Source of the DNA: a virus
Lineage: Duplodnaviria; Heunggongvirae; Uroviricota; Caudoviricetes
IMG/VR virus record: IMGVR_UViG_2690316149_000019
Reading direction: 5' to 3' (one strand)
Length of the DNA stretch: 33,563 nucleotides
Under the pieces are notes generated by a model. It saw only the letters and a list, made by a program, of their open reading frames with translations. It was not told where the DNA came from and searched no databases. Shown here one piece after another: positions 187-33,563 of this stretch (positions are counted from its first letter, which is position 1; each line of letters starts with the position of its first letter). Position numbers and translations under genes: made by a program.

Positions 187-1167
187 TTATAACGTCACTC
201 CGCCTTTTAGTGGATTCAGAGCGACGGCATTTTGCAGATAGTCAGGCGCAAGGTGCGCATAGGCCATCGTCTGCTGAATGCTCGCATGTCCCAGAATCTG
301 TTGCAGTGCGATTATATTGCCCCCATTCATCATGAAATGGCTTGCGAATGTATGCCGCAGGATGTGGGTTGCCTGATTGGGTGGTATATCAGGTTTCACT
401 CTGCGTAAAATCCCGCAAAATTTCTCATAATCAACTTTGAATAATTTGGCGCTGGCCTCCTCTTTAACTTTTTTCTCCAGTTCCTCAGAAATCGGCACGG
501 TTCGCTTTTTACCGTTTTTGGTTTTCAGGAAGGTAACCCTGCAATTTGTAATCTGTGCTGGTTTTAGCGTGGCAACTTCCGTCCATCTTCCTCCGGTGCT
601 CAGACATAAAAGCGCGACAAGTAAGTCATCACCAGCCAAAACATTTAACAGTTTTTCGATTTCTGCTTTTTCCAGGAACGTCATTTCAGGGTTGGCCTCC
701 GCCAGTGGCGGCAGTCCGTGAATTGGGTGTTGCCCGGAAAATTCATCCAATTGAATTAATTTTGTGAACATGCCGGATAATCGGTACATGTCACGGTTTA
801 TCGTTGCGGCACTGATACCATCACGTAGTCGCATGGAACGATAATCCATCAAAGCCCTTTTGCTCATCCTGCTCACTGGTATATCACCTATGCCGCTGAT
901 GGTTTTGAGTAGATGATTAAACTCTTTTGTTCCATGCTCGTGGTTTTGCCCGTGATATTTCCACCAGATGTCCAGCAACTCACTCAAAGTCCGGCGGTCT
1001 GCTCGCTGGCCTCCCCATTCTTTCTGACTGGCATTGGCGATTGTGTATCGCTCAAATGCTAGTGCTTCAGCTTTTCTTTCGAATTTCCTGCGGATGCGTT
1101 TTCCGTCGCGACCGCGAGGTCTAATGTCCACTTCATAGCGACCATCATCGAGCTTCTTAATTGCCAT
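187..1167 (-). CDS. int: Tyrosine-family site-specific integrase (P2 Int-like)
   Basis: The 336-aa ORF contains MAIKKLDDGRYEVDIRP (P2 Int-like N-terminus) and C-terminal catalytic motifs HTLRHTFAS and LGHASIQQTMAYAHL. Start set at the internal ATG (1167), which has a GGAGGG Shine-Dalgarno 9 nt upstream. Confidence 0.9.
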   Translation of the reverse strand: MAIKKLDDGRYEVDIRPRGRDGKRIRRKFERKAEALAFERYTIANASQKEWGGQRADRRTLSELLDIWWKYHGQNHEHGTKEFNHLLKTISGIGDIPVSRMSKRALMDYRSMRLRDGISAATINRDMYRLSGMFTKLIQLDEFSGQHPIHGLPPLAEANPEMTFLEKAEIEKLLNVLAGDDLLVALLCLSTGGRWTEVATLKPAQITNCRVTFLKTKNGKKRTVPISEELEKKVKEEASAKLFKVDYEKFCGILRRVKPDIPPNQATHILRHTFASHFMMNGGNIIALQQILGHASIQQTMAYAHLAPDYLQNAVALNPLKGGVTL

Positions 1168-1236
1168 AAGAAAGCCCTCCGGCGCTGTATTCACCATCTT
1201 GGTAGCAAATGGTGAAAATGTAATCTTTATATAGAG

Positions 1237-5970: not shown

Positions 5971-6422
5971 TGGCAAAAATTCACGAGGTAAAGCTGCACG
6001 CAAAATATTTCGACCTTGTGCTGGAAGGAAAGAAACGCGCAGAGTTTCGGAAAAATGACCGTAATTATGAGCGCGGGGACACGTTGATTTTGCATGAATG
6101 GGTGCAGGGTGTGTATACGGGGCGAAAGGTTGAAGCCCGGATAACAGATGTTACTGACCTGTCAGACTGGCTGGAAGATTATGTCTTGCTAAGTATTGAG
6201 CTGCTTAATACAGGTGCATATGAGATTGTGAACTGGAAAGAACTTAGTGAGCGTGGTCTGGTATTCAGAATTAATCATGAAATTATGCATCAGCTCGGCC
6301 TTGCTGTTATGTATGAACCAGAGACGGGGATGTCTGGCGGGGCAATGGTTGCCACGGATGGAGCATGGAACTATTCAGATGAACAGATGGAGCGTGCACA
6401 GCAAAACGGGTGGCTTGGATAA
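5970..6422 (+). CDS. Accessory protein with N-terminal ASCH/DUF3850-like (PUA-fold) domain and unknown C-terminal half
   Basis: N-terminus MAKIHEVKLHAKYFDLVLEGKKRAEFRKNDRNYERGDTLILHEW resembles DUF3850/ASCH domains. Start overlaps the A stop (TAATG). Occupies the position where P2 carries orf91/tin/old. Confidence 0.6.
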   Translation: MAKIHEVKLHAKYFDLVLEGKKRAEFRKNDRNYERGDTLILHEWVQGVYTGRKVEARITDVTDLSDWLEDYVLLSIELLNTGAYEIVNWKELSERGLVFRINHEIMHQLGLAVMYEPETGMSGGAMVATDGAWNYSDEQMERAQQNGWLG

Positions 6423-6655
6423 TGCACAGAATGCCAGGCGAGATACCGCACCATAAAACTAAAAATATCAAGCTGATGGCTGTTGTTCACCGTCTACAGC
6501 AGATTATGGTCAACGAAAATCTGACGCCCGATGAGCTGGTCGGGTGTGCCGAAATAGTCCGGGATAATTACAGACGGTTTAACGATATCAGTAGACAGAA
6601 AAGTGAGACATTTCGGCCAGCTAACATGCCAAAACCACCACCACGCAGGCCGTAG
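6422..6655 (+). CDS. Small hypothetical protein
   Basis: 77-aa ORF, start overlapping the upstream stop (TAATG); proline- and basic-rich C-terminus, no recognisable domain. Could be spurious. Confidence 0.35.
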   Translation: MHRMPGEIPHHKTKNIKLMAVVHRLQQIMVNENLTPDELVGCAEIVRDNYRRFNDISRQKSETFRPANMPKPPPRRP

Positions 6656-6888
6656 AGAACCCCGCTATCCATGAAACTTGCTTTCAGGGAGGCGGGTTGA
6701 ATAAAAGTAGCTTTGCCGAAAAGTCTAACTATCTTGGTTTTTGCTGGTCCAAAGTTAATAAACAAACCTGCTTGTATGCAGCGGGTTTCCATATTGCCGT
6801 TTCGTATGCATGCCGCACCGTGCAAAGAGTATGAAAAATGTTATGGAAAAACGGGGATTAGTGTTATATTAATGGCTGAAAAGTGGTC

Positions 6889-6917
6889 TTGACACAGGTT
6901 GTTGTGTGTGGTAAGGC
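6889..6917 (+). promoter_or_regulatory. Candidate sigma70 promoter for the peptidase gene
   Basis: TTGACA at 6889-6894 followed 17 nt later by a weak -10 (TAAGGC); AGGAGG Shine-Dalgarno at 6944-6949 before ATG 6954. Confidence 0.3.
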
Positions 6918-6953
6918 TGTATCCCTTTGGCATTCAAAATGTAGGAGGCAACC

Positions 6954-7430
6954 ATGAGCATCGCAGCTAAAAATCTGCTTAATCGCTATTGGGATCGCCG
7001 ACTACCTGTCGATCCGTTTAAGCTCGCCGCAGCGTGGGGTGCAAGAGTGGAGCCGCTCAGGGAACCAGCGAATGGGTTAAGTGGTTCAGCCGTAATAGAA
7101 AATGGCATACCTTATATTTATTTTAACTCAAATGAACATTACAACCGCCAACGCTTTACTGTAGCGCATGAGCTCGGTCATCATGTTTTAGGGCATACTC
7201 AAGACGGAGAATATCATCGCGATATTGTAGGCAACTACTCAACTGGCATCCGTGATTATCGTGAAATAGAAGCTAACCAGTTTGCTGCAGAGCTATTGAT
7301 GCCGGAAGAGGCCATTCGTCAACTAGTGTCGCGTATAGGCGTTGATAGTACATTACGTTTGGCAAACATATTTAACGTTTCTGAGGCTGCTATGCACTGG
7401 CGTCTTAAAGCGTTGGGTATGGCTTACTAA
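6954..7430 (+). CDS. ImmA/IrrE-family (COG2856-like) zinc metallopeptidase
   Basis: HEXXH motif in FTVAHELGHHVLGH and a downstream glutamate-containing motif (EANQFAAELLMP). 158 aa with a strong AGGAGG ribosome-binding site. Confidence 0.75.
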   Translation: MSIAAKNLLNRYWDRRLPVDPFKLAAAWGARVEPLREPANGLSGSAVIENGIPYIYFNSNEHYNRQRFTVAHELGHHVLGHTQDGEYHRDIVGNYSTGIRDYREIEANQFAAELLMPEEAIRQLVSRIGVDSTLRLANIFNVSEAAMHWRLKALGMAY

Positions 7431-7460
7431 TACCCTCTTTAACTTTTTTCAAACCGGTTT

Positions 7461-7495
7461 AAAATCACCATTATTTTATTAATAATGGTGATTTT
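7461..7495. promoter_or_regulatory. Perfect 15-bp inverted repeat (aaaatcaccattatt / aataatggtgatttt, 5-nt loop) abutting the ATG of the membrane-protein gene
   Basis: Seen in sequence. Preceded by the 10-bp palindrome aaaccggttt (7451-7460) and followed by a T-run; the right arm contains the only Shine-Dalgarno-like element (GGTGA) for ATG 7498. Confidence 0.6.
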
Positions 7496-7497
7496 TT

Positions 7498-8118
7498 ATG
7501 GCAGATATCGACCTCTCTGGCCAATCTCCGGCTCAGTCTTCCCAGCCATCCAAAACTTCAACCTTTCCACATCCACCTAGCGATGCCGATCCAGATATTT
7601 TGTTACGTAGAGAAGTGCATGATGGCATGGAAAGGAGGGGAATGCGCTTAGTTTTGTCAGCCACCGTACTTTTTTTTGCCATAATGTTTTTATGGAAAGG
7701 TCTGTATTTCGCTCTCGAAGTCGGAAATGGTTTGCTTGCGGCTAAAAGTAGTATTGTTTCAGCGTTGGCACAAAATGATGAAAAGGTTGTTTGCGAACCT
7801 AAAACTAAATGTATTGAGCCTAAACAGCAGACAATGAAACCTACAGAAAAAACTCCCGGCATGTCAACAAAGGGTGATAGAGTAATGCCAAACTTATCTA
7901 CAGATTGGCTTTCTGCAAGTTCGCTAATTGCCATAGTCGCTTTCATCCTTGGTGTTGGCTTGACGTTAATCCTTACCCTACTTAAGTCCGCTTTTCATCA
8001 TCCGACTGATAAAAATCTCAATGAGCAAAAAACAACAGATGCGATTGAGTTGGCGACTCCCTTAAGTGAGTTAATCGCGGGTATTATTAATTATCTCAAG
8101 AGCAAATTTTCTAAATAA
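7498..8118 (+). CDS. Membrane protein of unknown function (two predicted transmembrane helices)
   Basis: 206 aa with hydrophobic stretches LVLSATVLFFAIMFLWKGLYFAL and LIAIVAFILGVGLTLILTLL and a Pro/Ser/Thr-rich N-terminus; lower GC than the phage core. Confidence 0.6.
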   Translation: MADIDLSGQSPAQSSQPSKTSTFPHPPSDADPDILLRREVHDGMERRGMRLVLSATVLFFAIMFLWKGLYFALEVGNGLLAAKSSIVSALAQNDEKVVCEPKTKCIEPKQQTMKPTEKTPGMSTKGDRVMPNLSTDWLSASSLIAIVAFILGVGLTLILTLLKSAFHHPTDKNLNEQKTTDAIELATPLSELIAGIINYLKSKFSK

Positions 8119-8327
8119 CGTCCTCTTGGTTATTTTTTAAATCAGCACCATTAGTGCCGGTTTTTTTATGCTGTTTTACTGTAATTTCCCTGTTTTTAAG
8201 CCGTGCATGCAGCAGGTGCATGGTTTTGCATGCGCAGGAAGTGTCCGTTCTGGCCGAGCACCGGCAGAACGGACGCGGATCCAGAACGGTCATGCAACTG
8301 CATTCAAACCACCCCATGAAGCGGGCG

Positions 8328-12404: not shown

Positions 12405-13478
12405 ATGCGCCAGGAAACCCGCTTTAAATTTAATGCCTACCTGTCCCGTGTTGCCGAACTGAACGGCATCGACGCCGGTGATGTGTCGAAAAAATTCACC
12501 GTTGAACCGTCGGTCACCCAGACCCTGATGAACACCATGCAGGAGTCCTCTGACTTTCTGACCCGCATCAACATTGTGCCGGTCAGCGAAATGAAAGGGG
12601 AAAAAATTGGCATCGGTGTCACCGGCTCCATCGCCAGCACCACCGACACCGCCGGTGGCACCGAGCGTCAGCCGAAGGACTTCTCGAAGCTGGCGTCAAA
12701 CAAGTACGAATGCGACCAGATTAACTTCGATTTTTATATCCGCTACAAAACGCTGGACCTGTGGGCGCGTTATCAGGATTTCCAGCTCCGTGTCCGTAAC
12801 GCCATTATCAAACGCCAGTCCCTTGATTTCATCATGGCCGGTTTTAACGGCGTGAAGCGTGCCGAAACCTCTGACCGCAGCAGTAACCCGATGCTGCAGG
12901 ATGTGGCGGTCGGCTGGCTGCAGAAATACCGCAATGAAGCTCCGGCGCGCGTGATGAGCAAGGTCACTGACGAGGAAGGCCATACCACCTCTGAGGTTAT
13001 CCGCGTGGGTAAGGGCGGTGATTATGTCAGCCTTGATGCACTGGTGATGGATGCGACCAATAACCTGATTGAACCGTGGTATCAGGAAGACCCTGACCTT
13101 GTGGTGATTGTGGGGCGTCAGCTACTGGCGGACAAGTATTTCCCCATCGTCAACAGGGAGCAGGACAACAGCGAAATGCTGGCCGCTGACGTCATCATCA
13201 GCCAGAAACGCATCGGTAACCTGCCAGCGGTACGCGTCCCGTACTTCCCGGCGGATGCGATGCTCATCACGAAGCTGGAAAACCTGTCCATCTACTACAT
13301 GGATGACAGCCATCGCCGCGTGATTGAGGAAAACCCGAAACTCGACCGCGTGGAGAACTACGAGTCAATGAACATTGATTACGTGGTGGAAGACTACGCC
13401 GCCGGCTGTCTGGTGGAAAAAATTAAGGTCGGTGATTTCTCCACACCGGCTAAAGCGACCGCAGAGCCGGGAGCGTAA
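12405..13478 (+). CDS. N: Major capsid protein
   Basis: 357 aa, P2 gpN length and position. Confidence 0.9.
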   Translation: MRQETRFKFNAYLSRVAELNGIDAGDVSKKFTVEPSVTQTLMNTMQESSDFLTRINIVPVSEMKGEKIGIGVTGSIASTTDTAGGTERQPKDFSKLASNKYECDQINFDFYIRYKTLDLWARYQDFQLRVRNAIIKRQSLDFIMAGFNGVKRAETSDRSSNPMLQDVAVGWLQKYRNEAPARVMSKVTDEEGHTTSEVIRVGKGGDYVSLDALVMDATNNLIEPWYQEDPDLVVIVGRQLLADKYFPIVNREQDNSEMLAADVIISQKRIGNLPAVRVPYFPADAMLITKLENLSIYYMDDSHRRVIEENPKLDRVENYESMNIDYVVEDYAAGCLVEKIKVGDFSTPAKATAEPGA

Positions 13479-14834: not shown

Positions 14835-15037
14835 TGAAGACCTTTGCGCTACAGGGCGACACGCTCGACGCCATTTGTGTCCGGTATTACGGGCGCACTG
14901 AGGGCGTGGTTGAGACCGTGCTCGCCGCAAATCCGGGACTGGCTGAACTGGGTGCGGTGCTGCCACATGGCACCGCCGTCGAACTGCCCGACGTTCAGAC
15001 CGCGCCCGTGGCTGAAACTGTCAATCTGTGGGAGTAA
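14834..15037 (+). CDS. X: Tail protein X
   Basis: 67 aa from MKTFALQGDTLDAICVRYYG; start overlaps the L stop (TGATG). Confidence 0.85.
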   Translation: MKTFALQGDTLDAICVRYYGRTEGVVETVLAANPGLAELGAVLPHGTAVELPDVQTAPVAETVNLWE

Positions 15038-15040
15038 CGC

Positions 15041-15322
15041 ATGACAGCAGAAGAAAAAAGCGTCCTGTCGCTTTTCATGATTGGGGTGCTGATTGTTGTC
15101 GGCAAGGTGCTTGCCGGTGGTGAACCCATCACCCCGCGTCTGTTTATCGGGCGCATGTTGCTCGGCGGTTTTGTCTCGATGGTTGCCGGTGTTGTTCTGG
15201 TGCAGTTTCCTGACCTGTCACTGCCTGCGGTGTGCGGCATCGGCTCCATGCTGGGTATCGCCGGTTATCAGGTGATTGAGATTGCCATTCAGCGCCGCTT
15301 TAAGGGCAGGGGGAAACCGTAA
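15041..15322 (+). CDS. Y: Holin
   Basis: 93 aa, hydrophobic (VLSLFMIGVLIVVGKVLAGG...), first gene of the lysis cassette. Confidence 0.85.
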   Translation: MTAEEKSVLSLFMIGVLIVVGKVLAGGEPITPRLFIGRMLLGGFVSMVAGVVLVQFPDLSLPAVCGIGSMLGIAGYQVIEIAIQRRFKGRGKP

Positions 15323-15819
15323 TGCCGGTAATTAACACGCATCAGAATATCGCCGCCTTTCTCGACATGCTGGCCGTGTCCGAAGGGACGGCGAATCATC
15401 CGCTGACGAAAAACCGGGGCTATGACGTGATAGTCACCGGACTGGACGGGAAGCCGGAAATTTTCACCGACTACAGTGACCACCCGTTCGCGCATGGCCG
15501 ACCGGCGAAGGTGTTTAACCGTCGCGGTGAAAAATCCACGGCCTCCGGTCGCTATCAGCAGCTTTACCTGTTCTGGCCGCATTACCGCAAACAGCTTGCC
15601 CTGCCGGATTTCAGTCCGTTGTCACAGGACAGACTCGCCATTCAGTTGATCCGCGAACGCGGTGCGCTGGATGACATCCGGGCGGGACGTATTGAGCGCG
15701 CCATTTCACGCTGTCGCAATATCTGGGCGTCCCTGCCGGGAGCCGGTTACGGTCAGCGTGAGCATTCACTGGAAAAACTGGTCACCGTCTGGCGTACCGC
15801 TGGCGGCGTACCGGCTTAA
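15322..15819 (+). CDS. K: Endolysin (lysozyme)
   Basis: 165 aa, P2 gpK length and position immediately after the holin. Confidence 0.88.
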   Translation: MPVINTHQNIAAFLDMLAVSEGTANHPLTKNRGYDVIVTGLDGKPEIFTDYSDHPFAHGRPAKVFNRRGEKSTASGRYQQLYLFWPHYRKQLALPDFSPLSQDRLAIQLIRERGALDDIRAGRIERAISRCRNIWASLPGAGYGQREHSLEKLVTVWRTAGGVPA

Positions 15820-15833
15820 ACGGAGTAAACACC

Positions 15834-16259
15834 ATGAAGAAATTATCCCTTTCACTGATGCTGAATGTGTCGCTGGCGCTGATGCTGGCACTGTCCCTGA
15901 TTTACCCGCAGAGCGTGGCCGTCAGTTTTGTCGCTGCCTGGGCGATTCTGGCGACGGTTATCTGTGTGGTTTCCGGTGGTGTCGGGGTGTATGCCACTGA
16001 GTATGTGCTGGAACGCTACGGGCGGGAGCTGCCGCCGGAATCGCTGGCTGTGAAGATTGTCACGTCGCTGTTTTTGCAGCCGGTGACGTGGTGCAGACGG
16101 GCGGCGGCTCTGGTGGTGATGGTGGCGACATTTATCTCGCTGGTCGCCGCCGGGTGGATTTTTACTGCGCTGATTTATCTCGTGGCGTCGGTGTTCTTCC
16201 GGCTGATACGTACGGCCTGCCGTCAGCGTTTTGAGGGGCGGGAACCATGTCAAAGCTGA
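15834..16259 (+). CDS. lysA: Lysis timing membrane protein LysA
   Basis: 141 aa with multiple hydrophobic helices, in the P2 lysA position. Confidence 0.8.
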   Translation: MKKLSLSLMLNVSLALMLALSLIYPQSVAVSFVAAWAILATVICVVSGGVGVYATEYVLERYGRELPPESLAVKIVTSLFLQPVTWCRRAAALVVMVATFISLVAAGWIFTALIYLVASVFFRLIRTACRQRFEGREPCQS

Positions 16260-16672
16260 TGATTGTGCTGGTTGTGTTGTTATCACTGGCGGTGGCGGGG
16301 CTGTTTCTGGCGAAGCATGAAAACGCCAGCCTGCGCGCCTCGCTGGACAGGGCGAACAACGTCGCCAGCGGTCAGCAGACGACCATCACCATGCTGAAAA
16401 ATCAGCTTCATGTTGCGCTCACCAGGGCAGATAAAAACGAGCTGGCGCAGGTTGCACTGCGTCAGGAACTGGAGAACGCCGCGAAACGTGAAGCACAGCG
16501 CGAGAAAACCATCACGAGGTTACTTAATGAGAACGAAGATTTTCGCCGCTGGTACGGTGCTGACCTGCCTGATGCTGTGCGCCGGTTGCACCAGCGCCCC
16601 GCCTGCACCGACGCCAGTGATTGTCCACAACGCCTGCCCGAAAGTGAGCCTTTGCCCGATGCCGGGCAGTGA
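16247..16672 (+). CDS. lysB: Rz-like inner-membrane spanin LysB
   Basis: 141 aa with an N-terminal transmembrane helix and a coiled-coil-like remainder. Confidence 0.8.
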   Translation: MSKLMIVLVVLLSLAVAGLFLAKHENASLRASLDRANNVASGQQTTITMLKNQLHVALTRADKNELAQVALRQELENAAKREAQREKTITRLLNENEDFRRWYGADLPDAVRRLHQRPACTDASDCPQRLPESEPLPDAGQ

Positions 16673-16805
16673 CCCGGAGACGAACGGTGATTTAAGTGCC
16701 GATATCCGGCAGCTTGAGAACGCGCTGGCACGCTGTGCCAGCCAGGTAAAAATGATTAAACACTGTCAGGACGAAAACGATGCTCAAACCCGACAGCCTG
16801 CGTAG
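16527..16805 (+). CDS. lysC: Rz1-like outer-membrane lipoprotein spanin LysC, overlapping lysB out of frame
   Basis: MRTKIFAAGTVLTCLMLCAGC is a lipoprotein signal with a lipobox cysteine, followed by a proline-rich stretch; it is read in the +1 frame inside lysB. Confidence 0.65.
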   Translation: MRTKIFAAGTVLTCLMLCAGCTSAPPAPTPVIVHNACPKVSLCPMPGSDPETNGDLSADIRQLENALARCASQVKMIKHCQDENDAQTRQPA

Positions 16806-17247
16806 GGCGCTGACTGATGCCGTCACGGTGCTGAAAACTAACCCCGATATGCTGCAGATATTCGTGGATAACGGGAGTATTGCCTCCACGCTGGCGACGT
16901 CGCTGTCGTTCGAAAAGCGTTACACGCTCAATGTGATTGTGACCGACTTTACCGGTGATTTTGACCTGCTCATCGTGCCGGTGCTGGCGTGGCTGCGGGA
17001 AAATCAGCCCGACATCATGACCACCGACGAAGGCCAGAAAAAGGGCTTCACGTTTTATGCAGACATCAACAATGACAGCAGCTTTGATATCAGCATCAGC
17101 CTGATGCTGACCGAGCGCACGCTGGTCAGTGAGGTGGGCGGCGCACTGCATGTGAAGAATATCCCGGAACCTCCGCCGCCGGAGCCGGTCACCCGCCCGA
17201 TGGAGCTGTATATCAATGGCGAACTGGTGAGCAAGTGGGATGAATGA
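16780..17247 (+). CDS. R: Tail completion protein R
   Basis: 155 aa, P2 gpR length and position. Confidence 0.85.
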   Translation: MLKPDSLRRALTDAVTVLKTNPDMLQIFVDNGSIASTLATSLSFEKRYTLNVIVTDFTGDFDLLIVPVLAWLRENQPDIMTTDEGQKKGFTFYADINNDSSFDISISLMLTERTLVSEVGGALHVKNIPEPPPPEPVTRPMELYINGELVSKWDE

Positions 17248-17692
17248 GTTTAAGCGTTTTGAAGACCGGCTGACCGGACTGATTGAGTCGCTGTCACCGT
17301 CAGGGCGTCGGCGACTGAGTGCCGAACTGGCGAAACGTCTGCGGCAGAGTCAGCAGCGTCGGGTGATGGCGCAGAAAGCCCCGGACGGCACACCCTACGC
17401 GCCACGTCAGCAGCAGAGCGTCAGAAAAAAGACCGGTCGTGTTAAGCGAAAAATGTTTGCGAAACTTATCACCAGTCGTTTTTTGCATATCCGCGCCAGC
17501 CCGGAGCAGGCATCAATGGAATTTTACGGCGGGAAGTCGCCGAAAATCGCCAGTGTGCATCAGTTCGGTCTGTCGGAAGAAACCCGGAAAGACGGTAAGA
17601 AAATTGATTATCCGGCGCGTCCTCTGCTCGGCTTTACCGGTGAGGATGTGCAGATGATTGAGGAGATTATCCTGGCTCACCTTGAGCGTTAG
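17240..17692 (+). CDS. S: Tail completion protein S
   Basis: 150 aa, P2 gpS length and position. Confidence 0.85.
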   Translation: MNEFKRFEDRLTGLIESLSPSGRRRLSAELAKRLRQSQQRRVMAQKAPDGTPYAPRQQQSVRKKTGRVKRKMFAKLITSRFLHIRASPEQASMEFYGGKSPKIASVHQFGLSEETRKDGKKIDYPARPLLGFTGEDVQMIEEIILAHLER

Positions 17693-17763: not shown

Positions 17764-18549
17764 TTATGAGTGATTTTTATTTGATGCTTTGTATTCTAAA
17801 ACCTTCTTATTGGCGTAAAAGAATTTTGTATATGACAGGAATATAACCAGACCTGAAGTGAAATAGACGAGGGATAGTATTAATAATGCTTTTTTGTGAC
17901 TGTTATTATCTTTAATCTCCTGGCTTAACCATTCGGAGTCCTCCTCGTTTAGCTGTAAGAGCTTATTGCAGGCGATTTCAGGAAGTGTGTCTTTTATAAA
18001 TACGTTTTGCAGTCTCTTGCAATCGGCAAGGCTATAAGTTTTATTAAATTCAACTGCTTTATTTTTGAAGGATAAAAGAACTTTGTCACTATAAACATAG
18101 TACATCATATTTTTATATGGTATGCCTATGGCATCTCTTACTATAGCGGATTGTTTGTTGTGTATATAACATGCGAAGAGAATATAAATAATACTGGCCA
18201 GAATTACAATTATTGTTTTAATTATGTGTGGTGGTTTTGTTATGTCACCCCAGATGCGAGTAAGGAAAAAATACGATGTTTTTAGTTTTCCATCAATCAG
18301 TCCCTGCTGTATCATTCTCACATTTTCAATGCCTGATACATTGATTCCGTTAATTATTTTAAATAGTTGAATGTCGCGCCACTCGCGGTCAAGTCTTTTT
18401 AATTTTTTGTCTGAATATCCAAAATTGAAATAATGTGCAATAAGCCTCATAAGGTTACTTTTACCAAAGCTAAAAAATGCTAATACTGCAAAGCTACAAA
18501 GGAAAAAAACGATTAGCCCCCACACATTAGTCACATTATAGCTGACCAT
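17764..18549 (-). CDS. AT-rich moron: membrane protein of unknown function (P2 orf30 position)
   Basis: 261 aa with three hydrophobic helices (N-terminal, central, C-terminal), Lys/Asn/Ile/Tyr-rich. Much lower GC than the flanking tail genes and transcribed against the late operon. Confidence 0.7.
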   Translation of the reverse strand: MVSYNVTNVWGLIVFFLCSFAVLAFFSFGKSNLMRLIAHYFNFGYSDKKLKRLDREWRDIQLFKIINGINVSGIENVRMIQQGLIDGKLKTSYFFLTRIWGDITKPPHIIKTIIVILASIIYILFACYIHNKQSAIVRDAIGIPYKNMMYYVYSDKVLLSFKNKAVEFNKTYSLADCKRLQNVFIKDTLPEIACNKLLQLNEEDSEWLSQEIKDNNSHKKALLILSLVYFTSGLVIFLSYTKFFYANKKVLEYKASNKNHS

Positions 18550-21058: not shown

Positions 21059-23308
21059 ATGAGCACAAAATTCAAAACCGTTATCACCACTGCTGGTGCA
21101 GCAAAGCTGGCAGCGGCAACCGCGCCGGGAGGGCGGAAGGTCAACATTACCACGATGGCCGTCGGGGATGGCGGTGGTAAATTGCCTGTCCCGGATGCCG
21201 GACAGACCGGGCTTATCCACGAAGTCTGGCGACATGCGCTGAACAAAATCAGCCAGGACAAACGAAACAGTAATTATATTATCGCAGAGCTGGTTATTCC
21301 GCCGGAGGTGGGCGGTTTCTGGATGCGTGAGCTTGGCCTGTACGATGATGCTGGAACGTTAATTGCCGTGGCGAACATGGCTGAAAGTTATAAGCCAGCT
21401 CTTGCCGAAGGCTCAGGGCGTTCGCAGACCTGCCGCATGGTCATCATCGTCAGCAGTGTGGCCTCAGTGGCGCTGACCATTGACACCACAACGGTGATGG
21501 CAACGCAGGATTACGTTGATGACAAAATTGCAGAACATGAACAGTCACGACGTCACCCGGACGCCTCGCTGACCGCCAAAGGTTTTACTCAGTTAAGCAG
21601 TGCGACCAACAGCACGTCTGAAACACTCGCCGCAACACCAAAAGCGGTAAAAGCAGCATATGACCTTGCTAACGGGAAATACACTGCACAGGACGCCACC
21701 ACAGCGCGAAAAGGCCTTGTCCAGCTCAGTAGTGCCACCAACAGCACGTCTGAAACGCTCGCCGCAACACCAAAAGCGGTAAAAGCAGCATATGACCTTG
21801 CTAACGGGAAATACACTGCACAGGACGCCACCACCGCGCGAAAAGGCCTTGTCCAGCTCAGTAGCGCCACCAACAGCGATTCTGAAACGCTTGCGGCAAC
21901 GCCAAAGGCGGTTAAGACAGCGTATGACCTTGCTAACGGGAAATACACTGCACAGGATGCCACCACAGCGCGAAAAGGTCTTGTCCAGCTCAGTAGCGCC
22001 ACCAACAGTGATTCTGAAACGCTGGCTGCAACACCAAAAGCGGTGAAGTCTGCCTATGACAATGCTGAAAAACGTCTTCAGAAAGATCAGAACGGTGCGG
22101 ATATTCCTGATAAAGGACGCTTCCTGAGTAACATTAATGTTTACAGCAAAGGTGAAGTGGATAAGAAAAAGGGAATGCGAAAGTATTCGTTTGCAGCCCC
22201 TGCAAATGTCGTTGCCGGGAAGTGGTATCCCGTTATCTTTCGCCGTGCTGCCAGCCTTTCAGGAGAAATGGCATCCCGCGTCGTTATTTCAACTGGTTGT
22301 TATAACGGCGATTATGTAATGAATAACTGCGAGTTTAATGGCATGGTTATGCCCGGAGGCTGGACCGATCGTGGTTCATATGCGGCAGGTTATTTCTGGA
22401 CGTATCAGACTAATGAGCGTTCAATCCATTCCATTGTTACAAGCCTGAAAGATGATGATGTATGTAGTGTTTTTTATGTTGAAGCCAGAGCTTTCCCTGT
22501 GCAAATTCTTGCAGAGGAAGGGCTAACGGTTATTGTTCCGACAGAGGATTATGTCGTCGGTCAAACGACATATAAGTGGGGGGCAACTAATCCCGCTACA
22601 GAAAGCACGAACGCACAGGCTATTCTGGATTTTAAAAATGGACGTGGTTATTACTGTTCACATCCATTTATTTCCAGCCTTTCAGGAAATGCTGCAACAG
22701 CAACGAAGTTAGCGAACGCAAGAAATATTAATGGTGTCAGATTTGATGGCTCTGCCGATATAAATATTAATACACTGGTATCCAGAAACCGTGTTAATGC
22801 ATTAGGTGGGAGCGTAAAGGGGACACCAGGTATTCAGATGTATGAGGCATACAACAATGGCTACCCAACAGCCTATGGTAATGTGCTTCATCTCACTGGC
22901 GTAACCGCAGTAGGAGAGGGTGAGTTACTTATTGGCTGGAGTGGAACCAGCGGTGCTCATGCTCCGGCATATATTCGTTCCCGACGAGATACCACAGATG
23001 CTAACTGGTCTGGATGGGCGCAACTATATACAACTGCTCATAAACCCTCAGCGGGAGATGTTGGTGCATACACCAAAACTGAGTCAGATTCACGTTATGT
23101 GAGAGACATGCGGCTGGGCGGTGCATCTACATATAAACCAGCAAATAATGGTACTACATGGACGCATCAGGCTCCGTCAGGTTGCGTATATACCGGCATT
23201 ATTGTTCAGGATACCGGCTCAAACTCTGCCGATAACATTGGTGGCGTATATTACAGACCGGTGCAGAAATACATTAACGGGACATGGTATAACGTGGCGC
23301 AGGTATAA
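21059..23308 (+). CDS. H: Tail fibre protein H with internal tandem repeats
   Basis: 749 aa with a conserved P2-like N-terminus (MSTKFKTVITTAGAAKLAAATAPGG), then four tandem 44-aa repeats, then a C-terminal domain of about 400 aa. Confidence 0.88.
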   Translation: MSTKFKTVITTAGAAKLAAATAPGGRKVNITTMAVGDGGGKLPVPDAGQTGLIHEVWRHALNKISQDKRNSNYIIAELVIPPEVGGFWMRELGLYDDAGTLIAVANMAESYKPALAEGSGRSQTCRMVIIVSSVASVALTIDTTTVMATQDYVDDKIAEHEQSRRHPDASLTAKGFTQLSSATNSTSETLAATPKAVKAAYDLANGKYTAQDATTARKGLVQLSSATNSTSETLAATPKAVKAAYDLANGKYTAQDATTARKGLVQLSSATNSDSETLAATPKAVKTAYDLANGKYTAQDATTARKGLVQLSSATNSDSETLAATPKAVKSAYDNAEKRLQKDQNGADIPDKGRFLSNINVYSKGEVDKKKGMRKYSFAAPANVVAGKWYPVIFRRAASLSGEMASRVVISTGCYNGDYVMNNCEFNGMVMPGGWTDRGSYAAGYFWTYQTNERSIHSIVTSLKDDDVCSVFYVEARAFPVQILAEEGLTVIVPTEDYVVGQTTYKWGATNPATESTNAQAILDFKNGRGYYCSHPFISSLSGNAATATKLANARNINGVRFDGSADININTLVSRNRVNALGGSVKGTPGIQMYEAYNNGYPTAYGNVLHLTGVTAVGEGELLIGWSGTSGAHAPAYIRSRRDTTDANWSGWAQLYTTAHKPSAGDVGAYTKTESDSRYVRDMRLGGASTYKPANNGTTWTHQAPSGCVYTGIIVQDTGSNSADNIGGVYYRPVQKYINGTWYNVAQV
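21578..22059 (+). repeat. Four tandem in-frame copies of a 132-bp unit inside H
   Basis: The marker accaacagc recurs at 21605, 21737, 21869 and 22001, an exact 132-bp period. Copies differ at a few synonymous and missense positions (NSTSE vs NSDSE). Confidence 0.9.
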
Positions 23309-23839: not shown

Positions 23840-24178
23840 GTTGTATGAACTCTTGTGTGAGCTTACATACCTATAGAACAGAGTAAAGCCTAATCTGACA
23901 GTCCGCTCTGTGCCAGGAGCGGACATAACGACACGTTAGTTAGAAATCTCAAGACCAATTAGGTTGGATACTTACATGTATACTATTGCCTAACGATACT
24001 ACCCTATCAACCTCATGGTTTATAGGCGGGGGTGAGAGCCAATCGAACGCTATCGTACGTTTTTATGCTGTCTACCCTAGACCCCAAGTAGACATGAATC
24101 TTACCTGATTTCCATACGAGGGCGACGTTGATCATCCAGCTTTAGTGCGAGCACTGAACTTAACATTTACCAGCAATA

Positions 24179-25225
24179 GTGATATTTTCTACAAAGAAAA
24201 ATATATGGAATAACGTCATCGCGGGTACAAAAATGACTATAAAAAAAACATATGTAACACCAACAGAAATAGTGAAATATTTTTATGACAAACCGGAAAA
24301 CGATAACGTAAAAGAGAGAAAAACAATTGAGAGCCTGACCCGTCTCAAACCTGAGTGGGAAAATACTCTCGATATGATGAAGTTAATACGCAATTGTGAA
24401 AAGCTAGCAACTGAAGGTATTTTAATGGAATTATCTTCAGGACATACTCTTTTGGACCGTTGCTATTTCGCACCGAATTTCAATGAATCAGATGCGAAAT
24501 ATGGAAAGTATGATTTTATAGCTGATGGATTTGAGTCAATCATAGACCGCCTTAGTCCTTCCGTTTTACCTGTTGTTGTTGAAAAAAGTGATGGTTCACA
24601 TGATCTTGGTACTAGTTTTATTGTTGGGAATAACCACACGATATTTACAGCCAGACATGTTATTGAAGACATGAAGAGTATCAGGATACTTAGAGCTGGT
24701 GGTGAGGCTTTACCAATACATAAAATCTTTGTATCTAACGATGAACGTATTGATATCGCTTTAGTTTTCACAACCATTCCGAATGAAGATAATATTCAAC
24801 CACTTAAGGTCTCAACCAAAGCCTCGGTACTGGATGAAATTTTATCAATAGGATTTCCACCCATTCCAGGATTTGATGCATTAAAGTTATATGACGTTTC
24901 GCATATAAATTCGTTTGTCCGACTGTCAAAGGGGCGAATTGTTGGTTCTGGTCACTCTTACTTAGATTCACAAGACTTTTTATTATTCAATGCTAGGGTT
25001 AAGGGGGGGAATAGCGGTGGCCCTATAATTAACAAATACGGCTTTGTTGTTGGTATGCTTGTACAAATACCAATATCATCTGAGGACAGTTCAAAGATTG
25101 ATAACCTTGGATATGGTATAGCTGTAACAGGAAAAAGCCTGCTGGATGCCATTACATTTACAGAAAATGGCCGCGAATTAACACTCACCGACCGAGGAAA
25201 TGGAGAATATTCAACTCTAGCATAA
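24179..25225 (+). CDS. AT-rich moron: trypsin-like (S1/chymotrypsin-fold) serine protease with an unknown N-terminal domain of about 140 aa
   Basis: Catalytic triad context in order: TARHVIED (His), ERIDIALVF (Asp), GGNSGGPII (GxSGG Ser). The annotated start is a GTG; an in-frame ATG at 24233 is an alternative. Occupies the P2 Z/fun position between G and FI. Confidence 0.75.
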   Translation: MIFSTKKNIWNNVIAGTKMTIKKTYVTPTEIVKYFYDKPENDNVKERKTIESLTRLKPEWENTLDMMKLIRNCEKLATEGILMELSSGHTLLDRCYFAPNFNESDAKYGKYDFIADGFESIIDRLSPSVLPVVVEKSDGSHDLGTSFIVGNNHTIFTARHVIEDMKSIRILRAGGEALPIHKIFVSNDERIDIALVFTTIPNEDNIQPLKVSTKASVLDEILSIGFPPIPGFDALKLYDVSHINSFVRLSKGRIVGSGHSYLDSQDFLLFNARVKGGNSGGPIINKYGFVVGMLVQIPISSEDSSKIDNLGYGIAVTGKSLLDAITFTENGRELTLTDRGNGEYSTLA

Positions 25226-25700
25226 ATGATATTATTAATTAAGTTGTACTAACTCAGTTTAAATGAATCAAGCATCCCCGTAACTTTGCCTGAAAAGGCT
25301 CATCGAGGGATGCACATTGTACGGATGTGTGAAAACTAAATCGGCTTTGTCACTTGGATTCGAGGGGAAAACTGAACTGAAAGCGATAAAAACGTCTAAA
25401 AAATCGTTTCGCAGACAGATGCACCCGATTCAAGCCATTTTGAGGAAGGCTTTCTGCCTTTTATATTTATATTAATCATAAGCTTATTCCATTGGTGTAC
25501 GATATCGTGCTTTGCCCCTCATCTCCCAGATAACTAATTAGCCTTAAAATTACTCATGTGTTTCTGCCGGTTAAAATTATATGGTTTTCATTTACAATAG
25601 TCTCAAGTCCGCTCTTCGCTCAAAGCAGACTGTCAGATTTGATAGCATTTGGGCTATGTAAATTGTCAGGCGGAAAATGAGTGAGTACAAATCAGGACAG

Positions 25701-32582: not shown

Positions 32583-32660
32583 CTCAATTTGCCTGCTGCT
32601 TAATGCATTGCAGATGATTTGCTTCCGTTATACTAGCGTCAGTTGATAGCGGGAGTATTT

Positions 32661-33563
32661 ATGAATCAATCTTATGGACGGCTGGTCAGTCGGGCGGCGA
32701 TTGCTGCGACGGCGATGGCTTCGTTGCTATTGCTGATTAAAATTTTTGCATGGTGGTATACCGGGTCGGTGAGTATTCTCGCCGCGCTGGTGGATTCGCT
32801 GGTGGATATCGGCGCGTCGTTGACGAATTTATTGGTGGTGCGATATTCCCTGCAACCTGCCGACGATAATCACTCGTTTGGTCACGGTAAAGCTGAGTCC
32901 CTCGCGGCGCTGGCGCAAAGTATGTTTATCTCCGGTTCGGCACTATTCCTGTTTTTGACGGGTATTCAACATCTGATATCTCCAACACCGATGACAGATC
33001 CAGGCGTCGGGGTTATCGTGACAATTGTGGCGCTAATTTGTACGATTATCCTTGTCTCGTTTCAGCGTTGGGTGGTGCGGCGGACGCAAAGCCAGGCGGT
33101 GCGGGCTGATATGCTACATTACCAGTCTGATGTTATGATGAACGGCGCAATTCTGCTGGCGCTGGGGTTGTCCTGGTACGGCTGGCATCGCGCCGATGCT
33201 CTGTTTGCATTGGGAATCGGCATCTATATTTTATATAGCGCGTTACGCATGGGATATGAGGCGGTACAGTCATTACTGGATCGCGCATTGCCTGATGAGG
33301 AACGGCAAGAAATTATTGATATCGTGACTTCCTGGCCGGGTGTTAGCGGCGCTCACGATCTTCGCACGCGGCAGTCAGGGCCGACCCGCTTTATTCAGAT
33401 TCATTTGGAAATGGAAGACTCTCTGCCTTTGGTTCAGGCACATATGGTGGCGGATCAGGTAGAGCAGGCTATTTTACGGCGTTTTCCGGGATCGGATGTA
33501 ATTATCCATCAGGACCCCTGTTCCGTCGTACCCAGGGAGGGTAAACGGTCTATGCTTTCATAA
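32661..33563 (+). CDS. fieF: Cation diffusion facilitator FieF (ferrous-iron/zinc efflux), host gene
   Basis: 300 aa from [54 protein letters not shown], recognised as enterobacterial FieF/YiiP. The stop codon is the last triplet of the window. Confidence 0.9.

Follow-up and report, generated by a model that had tools for sequence, protein, structure and literature searches.

An overlapped two-component spanin gene pair, lysB/lysC, in the lysis cassette of a P2-like Escherichia coli prophage

The viral record IMGVR_UViG_2690316149_000019 (Caudoviricetes; 33,563 nt, hereafter the window) contains at positions 16247-16805 the gene lysB and, beginning inside it in another frame, a second open reading frame (ORF), lysC. 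The question raised by this locus is whether the second frame is a gene, encoding the outer-membrane subunit (o-spanin) of a spanin pair in which LysB is the inner-membrane subunit (i-spanin), and what class of gene arrangement the two form. Our analysis leaves little doubt that lysB and lysC here encode the two-component spanin of a P2-like E. coli prophage and form the final functional unit of its Y-K-lysA-lysB-lysC lysis cassette. This assignment is carried by the gene geometry, the family membership, the topology signals and the conservation of the pair. A preliminary description of the same DNA, made from the letters alone, had already proposed a spanin pair, with lysB as the Rz-like i-spanin and lysC as the Rz1-like o-spanin, and the matches to TIGR03495, NF038368 and PHROG families, together with the survey of Kongari 2018 (PMC6139136), support this. 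The interval it gave is exact, running from the lysB ATG to the last base of the lysC stop. The pair is already known in every respect, being the overlapped spanin pair of P2.

Both genes lie on the plus strand, lysB at 16247-16672 (141 aa) and lysC at 16527-16805 (92 aa). The start of lysC is 280 nt into lysB (280 mod 3 = 1, i.e. the +1 frame), and the +1 frame is open from 16410 to the TAG at 16803-16805. The overlap of the two genes is 146 nt; of the 279 nt of lysC, 133 follow the lysB stop, and the last 26 of these are shared with R, which begins at 16780. Thus lysC begins in the +1 frame within lysB and runs on into R, as was first noticed from the letters, and the same arrangement has been described for P2, with the lysC start lying in lysB, in the +1 frame, and the lysC stop in R (Lynch 2010, PMC3091744). 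An o-spanin gene is called embedded if the i-spanin gene contains the whole of it, which is the case for lambda Rz/Rz1, and overlapped if it extends past the i-spanin gene, P2 being the named example (PMC6139136). With its start (16527) upstream and its stop (16805) downstream of the lysB stop (16672), lysC falls into the overlapped class and outside the embedded one. The preliminary description had used both words: its title, with lysC "embedded" inside lysB, names the wrong class, while "overlapped" in its own text is the correct one. SpaninDB likewise classifies P2 LysB/LysC as "ovl" (PMC6139136), and the PGAP note on lysC reads "substantially overlapping although not fully embedded". A GAGG Shine-Dalgarno sequence (16516-16519, plus strand, from sequence reading) stands 7 nt 5' of the lysC ATG, and SpaninDB marks the same ribosome-binding site for P2 lysC (agaaaaccatcacGAGGTtactta) (PMC6139136).

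Profile searches assign both products to P2 spanin families. LysB matches the TIGR03495 equivalog with 173.5 bits (cut-off 92.75, E 2.5e-51), residues 7-140 aligning with positions 2-135 of the 135-position profile, and the Rz-like spanin family phrog_89 with E 6.6e-61; it is identical to P2 LysB at 137 of 141 residues. LysC, whose 92-aa product is MRTKIFAAGTVLTCLMLCAGCTSAPPAPTPVIVHNACPKVSLCPMPGSDPETNGDLSADIRQLENALARCASQVKMIKHCQDENDAQTRQPA, matches the P2_Rz1 equivalog NF038368 with 129.4 bits (cut-off 27, E 4.1e-38, alignment from residue 4), Pfam PF23793 with 63.3 bits (cut-off 27, the model beginning at residue 16) and phrog_456, a PHROG "Rz-like spanin" family.

The topology signals of LysB are those of an i-spanin. 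Residues 4-22 (LMIVLVVLLSLAVAGLFLA, 16256-16312, plus strand) form an N-terminal transmembrane helix with a maximum of 2.99 in a 19-residue Kyte-Doolittle window, and this is the sole hydrophobic segment of the protein, which has thus the single N-terminal membrane helix that characterizes i-spanins. SpaninDB gives a 22-residue N-terminal membrane segment for P2 LysB (PMC6139136). LysB would accordingly be a type II inner-membrane protein, oriented N-in and C-out. The single-sequence AF2 model (mean predicted local distance difference test score, pLDDT, 78) consists of a helix at residues 2-104, a short helix at 107-115 and a low-confidence tail, with pLDDT 75-94 for residues 1-100. The periplasmic cysteines of LysB are C120 and C126.

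The N-terminus of LysC has, by hydropathy, the composition of a lipoprotein signal peptide. It spans residues 1-20 (16527-16586, plus strand), with a basic n-region, MRTK (R2 and K4), and a 16-residue hydrophobic core, IFAAGTVLTCLMLCAG; the whole leader, MRTKIFAAGTVLTCLMLCAG, is followed by Cys21. All of the N-terminal 33 residues are identical to those of P2 LysC. The lipobox region, L17-C18-A19-G20-C21, is encoded at 16575-16589 (plus strand), and Cys21 (16587-16589) is the predicted lipidated residue. Sorting of lipoproteins follows the +2 rule. The mature N-terminus would be C-T-S, with Thr instead of Asp at position +2, so that Lol sorting of LysC to the outer membrane is expected. Mature LysC has 72 aa, with eight Pro among the first 30 residues and four Cys beyond Cys21 (C37, C43, C70 and C80); a single periplasmic cysteine is the minimum expected of a two-component spanin for intermolecular disulfides.

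The LysC frame was found by tblastn in 278 phage records, with identity down to 36-48% in phages of Burkholderia, Pseudomonas, Shewanella and Aeromonas. The layout recurs in all 11 other Peduoviridae that were compared, whose hosts are Escherichia, Salmonella, Yersinia, Klebsiella, Pseudomonas, Burkholderia, Shewanella and Aeromonas: the +1 frame becomes open inside lysB, encodes a signal peptide that ends in Cys, and continues beyond the end of lysB. Across 12 aligned LysC proteins, C21, C37, C43, N53, A66, C70 and Q81 are invariant residues and C80 is a nearly invariant one, and N53, A66, C70 and Q81 fall in the segment that codes for lysC only.

Codon-phase diversity (pi), calculated for 96 distinct close IMG/VR relatives and the window, leaving out the lysC/R overlap, which contained the search pattern, points in the same direction. 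In lysB-only DNA the third position of lysB is the most variable (pi 0.106 vs 0.028 and 0.029), and in lysC-only DNA it is the third position of lysC (pi 0.034 vs 0.021 and 0.016). The third position of R is likewise the most variable within R (pi 0.068 vs 0.016 and 0.017).

The 146-nt dual-coding stretch (16527-16672, plus strand) encodes LysB residues 94-141 and, in the other frame, LysC residues 1-48 with two bases of codon 49. In particular, the LysB invariants W102, L107, P108 and R113 and the nearly invariant L114 share bases with the LysC invariants G9, C14, L15 and C21 and the nearly invariant G20. Hence the most conserved block of LysB and the signal peptide and lipobox of LysC are written in common bases. 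The invariant Cys14 of LysC is odd halfway along a signal peptide, and its simplest explanation is as a by-product of the LysB Leu-Pro pair (CTG CCT, read as TGC CTG). Within the overlap the third position of lysB, which is the second position of lysC, is still the most variable phase (pi 0.069), and therefore it is LysB that dominates the constraint there. The overlap is a matter of coding economy, not a regulatory device. In some close relatives (IMG/VR loci L014-L133) the TGA stop of lysB (window 16670-16672) is lost, and LysB, of 147 or 156 aa, extends into the segment that is lysC-only in the window; the length of the lysB/lysC overlap is therefore variable within the P2 group.

As to function, LysB would be anchored in the inner membrane by its N-terminal transmembrane segment and would reach into the periplasm with a long helix, and LysC would be translated from its own ribosome-binding site and the ATG at 16527, inside lysB. 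LysC would then be exported by Sec, lipidated at Cys21 and cut by signal peptidase II (SPase II), and the Lol system would deliver it to the outer membrane, in the inner leaflet. By analogy with lambda Rz/Rz1, LysB and LysC would bind each other through their periplasmic C-terminal parts, giving disulfide-stabilised complexes that cross the periplasm through the peptidoglycan mesh. When the holin Y lets the endolysin K degrade the wall, these complexes would be freed to move and to change shape; the inner and outer membranes would fuse, and the last barrier to virion release would be gone. For lipidation of LysC, formation of the LysB-LysC complex and membrane fusion we infer this course from published work on P2 and lambda. 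In the lambda Rz/Rz1 model the complexes span the periplasm and are released once the endolysin has removed the peptidoglycan (PMC6139136). For lambda, a physical complex linking the inner and outer membranes and the need for it in outer-membrane disruption have been published.

The original annotation of P2 leads to another reading, in which LysB and LysC are regulators of lysis timing and not disruptors of the outer membrane. The notes of the GenBank P2 record read "nonessential; affects timing of lysis" and "regulation of lysis", and several phage records have "lysis regulatory protein". We consider this extremely improbable, given the established topology, an inner-membrane anchor combined with an outer-membrane lipoprotein, and the established kinship with Rz/Rz1-type spanins. 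Moreover, co-expressed P2 lysB and lysC are reported to complement lambda Rz/Rz1 null mutants (Markov et al. 2004, J Bacteriol 186:4628). The apparent non-essentiality is accounted for as well: spanin mutants seem non-essential because shaking of the culture shears the spherical cells (PMC6139136). The spanin assignment is the one retained here.

Several points weigh against this assignment, or against single steps of it. One of them concerns the openness of the +1 frame. In 20,000 synonymous recodings of lysB, all preserving the LysB protein, the 146-nt overlap remained free of +1-frame stops in 93% of cases, and a loose signal-plus-lipobox pattern arose in 18%; by our estimate, about 20% of random 44-codon stretches at the same GC content stay open. 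Since most recodings are open, an open +1 frame inside lysB says nothing about coding, and we rejected it as evidence, the recoding test being without power in this respect. What is decisive for lysC is homology, conservation outside lysB and the published work on P2. The phase shift in lysC-only DNA is itself modest, with polymorphic sites at 12/36 third positions vs 5/36 and 8/35 in the other two phases. Finally, membrane fusion has been demonstrated for lambda Rz/Rz1 and applies to LysB/LysC by analogy, and LysC is a predicted lipoprotein.

A further point of this kind is the lipobox. The preliminary description had singled out an LCAGC lipobox, and the motif is indeed present as LysC residues 17-21, although it is not canonical: the CAGC box fails both the DOLOP pattern [LVI][ASTVI][GAS]C and a PROSITE PS51257-like pattern, because of the Cys at position -3 (the Leu is at -4). 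For the identical leader of P2 LysC, SpaninDB gives the same signal peptide with "No hit by Prosite" and records LipoP cleavage at two places, after residue 20 and after residue 17 (PMC6139136). The second site and the non-canonical character of the Cys21 box would fit lipidation of Cys18 instead of Cys21, or use of both sites, yielding two lipoprotein isoforms. This is very unlikely, as Cys21 is invariant in 12 of 12 homologues, while Cys18 is not conserved and is restricted to the lineages of P2, SEN1, Midge and KL3; moreover, the Cys18 box would be L15-M16-L17-C18, with a disfavoured Leu at position -1, where one of [GAS] is expected. Conservation thus favours keeping Cys21 as the probable lipidation site of LysC.

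The last of these points concerns the 3' end of lysC. The TAG stop at 16803-16805 (plus strand) results from a C-to-T change at 16803 relative to the CAG (Gln93) of P2, so that the last four residues, QGAD, are lost; in R the change is synonymous (codon 8, CGC to CGT). The QGAD tail is intact in 120/120 IMG/VR relatives matching the surrounding 27-mer, all of them having C at 16803, and full activity of the 92-aa copy of LysC is an assumption. On the other hand, 92-aa truncated LysC is encoded in 29 + 2 public contigs and in E. coli 602687, and thus the TAG allele is real but rare.

Two alternatives attach to this allele. According to one, the lysC copy of the window is weakened or dead, loss of QGAD impairing the spanin, with the family assignment still right. 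The zero count of TAG among the 120 relatives speaks for it, as does the AQGAD/AQSAD tail kept in the P2, SEN1 and Midge group. Still, several independent E. coli submissions, with about 31 contigs in all, carry the allele, which is therefore neither a sequencing error nor an immediate dead end; the remainder of LysC and all neighbouring late genes are intact; the C-terminal tails of distant LysC homologues are unrelated and variable in length; and the extreme C-terminus of lambda Rz1 is dispensable (PMC6139136). We therefore regard a weakened or dead allele as unlikely, and, because the tails of distant homologues vary and the lambda Rz1 end can be dispensed with, the four-residue truncation is expected to be neutral. 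The other alternative is that the amber codon at 16803 is a functional variant, altering spanin complex formation or lysis timing in a P2-like sub-lineage, or that the Cys-rich leader (C14, C18, C21) leads to alternative SPase II processing and two isoforms. We give this a slightly smaller chance still; if true, it would be a small addition to spanin biology and no new kind of system.

The start codon of lysC also has to be weighed, since databases disagree on it. RefSeq/PGAP places it at Met16 (16572), with a product beginning MLCAGC and having 77 or 81 aa (locus L134, 1826-2059). If lysC started there, the window would encode a 77-aa protein devoid of a functional signal peptide. This start is used by PGAP in the 100%-identical locus of E. 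coli 602687 and in relatives, the Pfam PF23793 model begins at the same residue, and the 81-aa form makes up most database entries. Nevertheless, its probability is close to nil. The resulting five-residue leader cannot serve as a Sec/SPase II signal; most homologues have Leu in place of Met16, whereas the start with M-[RK]-x-[KR] is a conserved one, and in 6 of the 11 homologues (Cartapus, Fels-2, phiCTX, the Klebsiella phage, the Shewanella phage and LPM4) that start has an in-frame stop 1-4 codons upstream. In addition, GAGG precedes the ATG at 16527 and no obvious Shine-Dalgarno sequence precedes 16572, the NF038368 alignment reaches up to residue 4, and the MRTK start is the one used by GenBank P2 and SpaninDB. 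The ATG at 16527 is thus kept as the lysC start.

These disagreements are part of a wider annotation pattern, which confirms the earlier remark that such genes are easily missed by gene callers. Among 528 two-component systems, the o-spanin was unannotated in 196 and wrongly started in 64 (Kongari 2018, PMC6139136). In a sample of 10 diverse Peduoviridae records, six omit or N-truncate lysC: it is absent from three (Yersinia 06.16-2, Cartapus and Aeromonas LPM4), and in three others (SEN1, Midge and Klebsiella ST512-KPC3phi13.2) it is called from an internal Met 3' of the lysB stop, with loss of the signal peptide. One 90%-identity cluster contains LysC entries of 57, 77, 81, 85, 87, 92 and 96 aa, a spread that looks like systematic disagreement over the start codon. 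Moreover, phrog_952, a profile of 62 positions, matches only LysC residues 36-92 and looks as if it had been built from truncated lysC calls. Where the o-spanin gene is omitted, or its start is placed so that the signal peptide is removed, it will be missed by pipelines that predict lysis proteins from N-terminal signals. The practical value of the lysB/lysC case therefore lies in annotation, and it has little as discovery.

The surroundings of the pair agree with its assignment. The window is a P2-like (Peduovirus) prophage of E. coli, with 97.4% nucleotide identity to P2 over 15000-17300 and about 97-98% identity of this region to many Peduovirus genomes. The gene order Y, K, lysA, lysB, lysC, R, S matches the P2 record with equal relative coordinates, and comparison of the whole window shows P2 synteny, comprising a diverged integrase, early genes, cos and the late genes from Q to ogr. 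Loci homologous to lysB/lysC were found in 1609 of 5426 complete E. coli genomes, and one of these genomes, that of E. coli 602687, matches the whole 614-nt query (16247-16860) with 100% identity.

The lysis cassette, all of it on the plus strand, opens with the holin gene Y (15041-15322; PF04550, 143.6 bits; phrog_175 holin; collinear with P2 Y), followed by the endolysin gene K (15322-15819; phrog_90 endolysin, E 1.4e-70; collinear with P2 K) and by lysA (15834-16259; phrog_162, NF038378), which encodes a putative antiholin, a multi-pass membrane protein, and overlaps the start of lysB by 13 nt; in the P2 GenBank record lysA is annotated "affects timing of lysis". Accordingly, lysB and lysC have the position found for spanin genes, with holin, endolysin and lysA directly upstream. 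Downstream lie R (16780-17247, plus strand), a tail completion or terminator gene (PF06891, 154 bits; phrog_65) whose first 26 nt are shared with the end of lysC, and S, which matches PF05069. The late genes around the pair are all intact.

Other signals in and around the pair are minor. An 8-bp perfect hairpin with a 3-nt loop, GCTGGCAC-gct-GTGCCAGC, lies inside lysC at 16724-16742 (plus strand) and corresponds to the "putative transcription attenuator" of P2 (P2 8399-8417). Its stem is present in the minimum free energy fold, yet the region folds no more stably than shuffled controls (z-score -0.63), there is no T-tract and the hairpin is absent from the terminator scan; a role as terminator or attenuator was therefore rejected. 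The minus-strand ORFs 16162-16359, 16462-16731 and 16692-16889 were rejected as genes, as they match no Pfam family. RNA genes were found neither by Rfam, in the whole window, nor by ARAGORN.

Outside the cassette the window deviates from P2 in several places. The integrase gene (187-1197, minus strand) has a nucleotide identity to P2 int of only 70-80%, which suggests a different attachment site. The slot occupied in P2 by tin and old (6190-8299) has a different cargo, including an ORF for an M78/IrrE-like metalloprotease (6954-7430) with PADLOC capP- and RmrA-like matches and, next to it, a 206-aa ORF (7498-8118; phrog_8096); this may be an anti-phage or regulatory module in a known variable locus of P2. 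Instead of the Z/fun genes of P2, the corresponding slot (23924-25608) holds a 348-aa ORF (24179-25225) that ends in a trypsin-like serine protease domain (PF13365; phrog_18002). Its PADLOC matches are only domain-level ones, to the protease parts of the RT-Protease, LmuA and HamA models, and it is a candidate defence gene.

The homologue of P2 orf30 (261 aa, phrog_2407), located between S and V at 17764-18549 on the minus strand, has a GC content of 0.33 vs about 0.57 around it; it has no Pfam, NCBIfam or PADLOC match and looks like a foreign AT-rich moron. Within the tail fibre gene H (21059-23308, 749 aa), a 132-bp unit is repeated in tandem and in frame at 21605-22044 (3.3 copies, 92% identity). 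All repeat copies map by BLAST to P2 H 13252-13461, and past the repeats H no longer aligns with P2. The right flank (32643-33563) consists of host DNA, with a gene for a cation efflux protein of the CDF family (PF01545 and ZT_dimer domain, fieF-like).

Among known systems the closest is LysB/LysC of P2 itself (AF063097 / NC_001895), which has the same genes, the same place in the cassette, the same 280-nt start offset and +1 frame, the same ribosome-binding site and the same hairpin in lysC. P2 LysB, also of 141 aa, is four substitutions apart. LysC has 96 aa in P2 and 92 aa here, with the further substitutions P34H and Q51E, and the lysC/R overlap is 38 nt in P2 and 26 nt here. With lambda Rz/Rz1 the pair shares its position as the last genes of the lysis cassette, the periplasmic cysteines and the proposed mechanism of fusing the inner and outer membranes. 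No lambda Rz/Rz1-named family was matched by LysB or LysC in the profile searches, and the architecture is different, as Rz1 is wholly inside Rz (embedded), whereas lysC extends 133 nt past lysB (overlapped). Mature LysC, with 72 aa, has five Cys, unlike lambda Rz1 with its single Cys. T4 PseT.3/PseT.2, a pair of separated spanins, and T1 gp11, a unimolecular spanin, belong to the same class of proteins, disrupting the outer membrane at the end of lysis; the T4 spanin genes do not overlap, unlike lysB and lysC.

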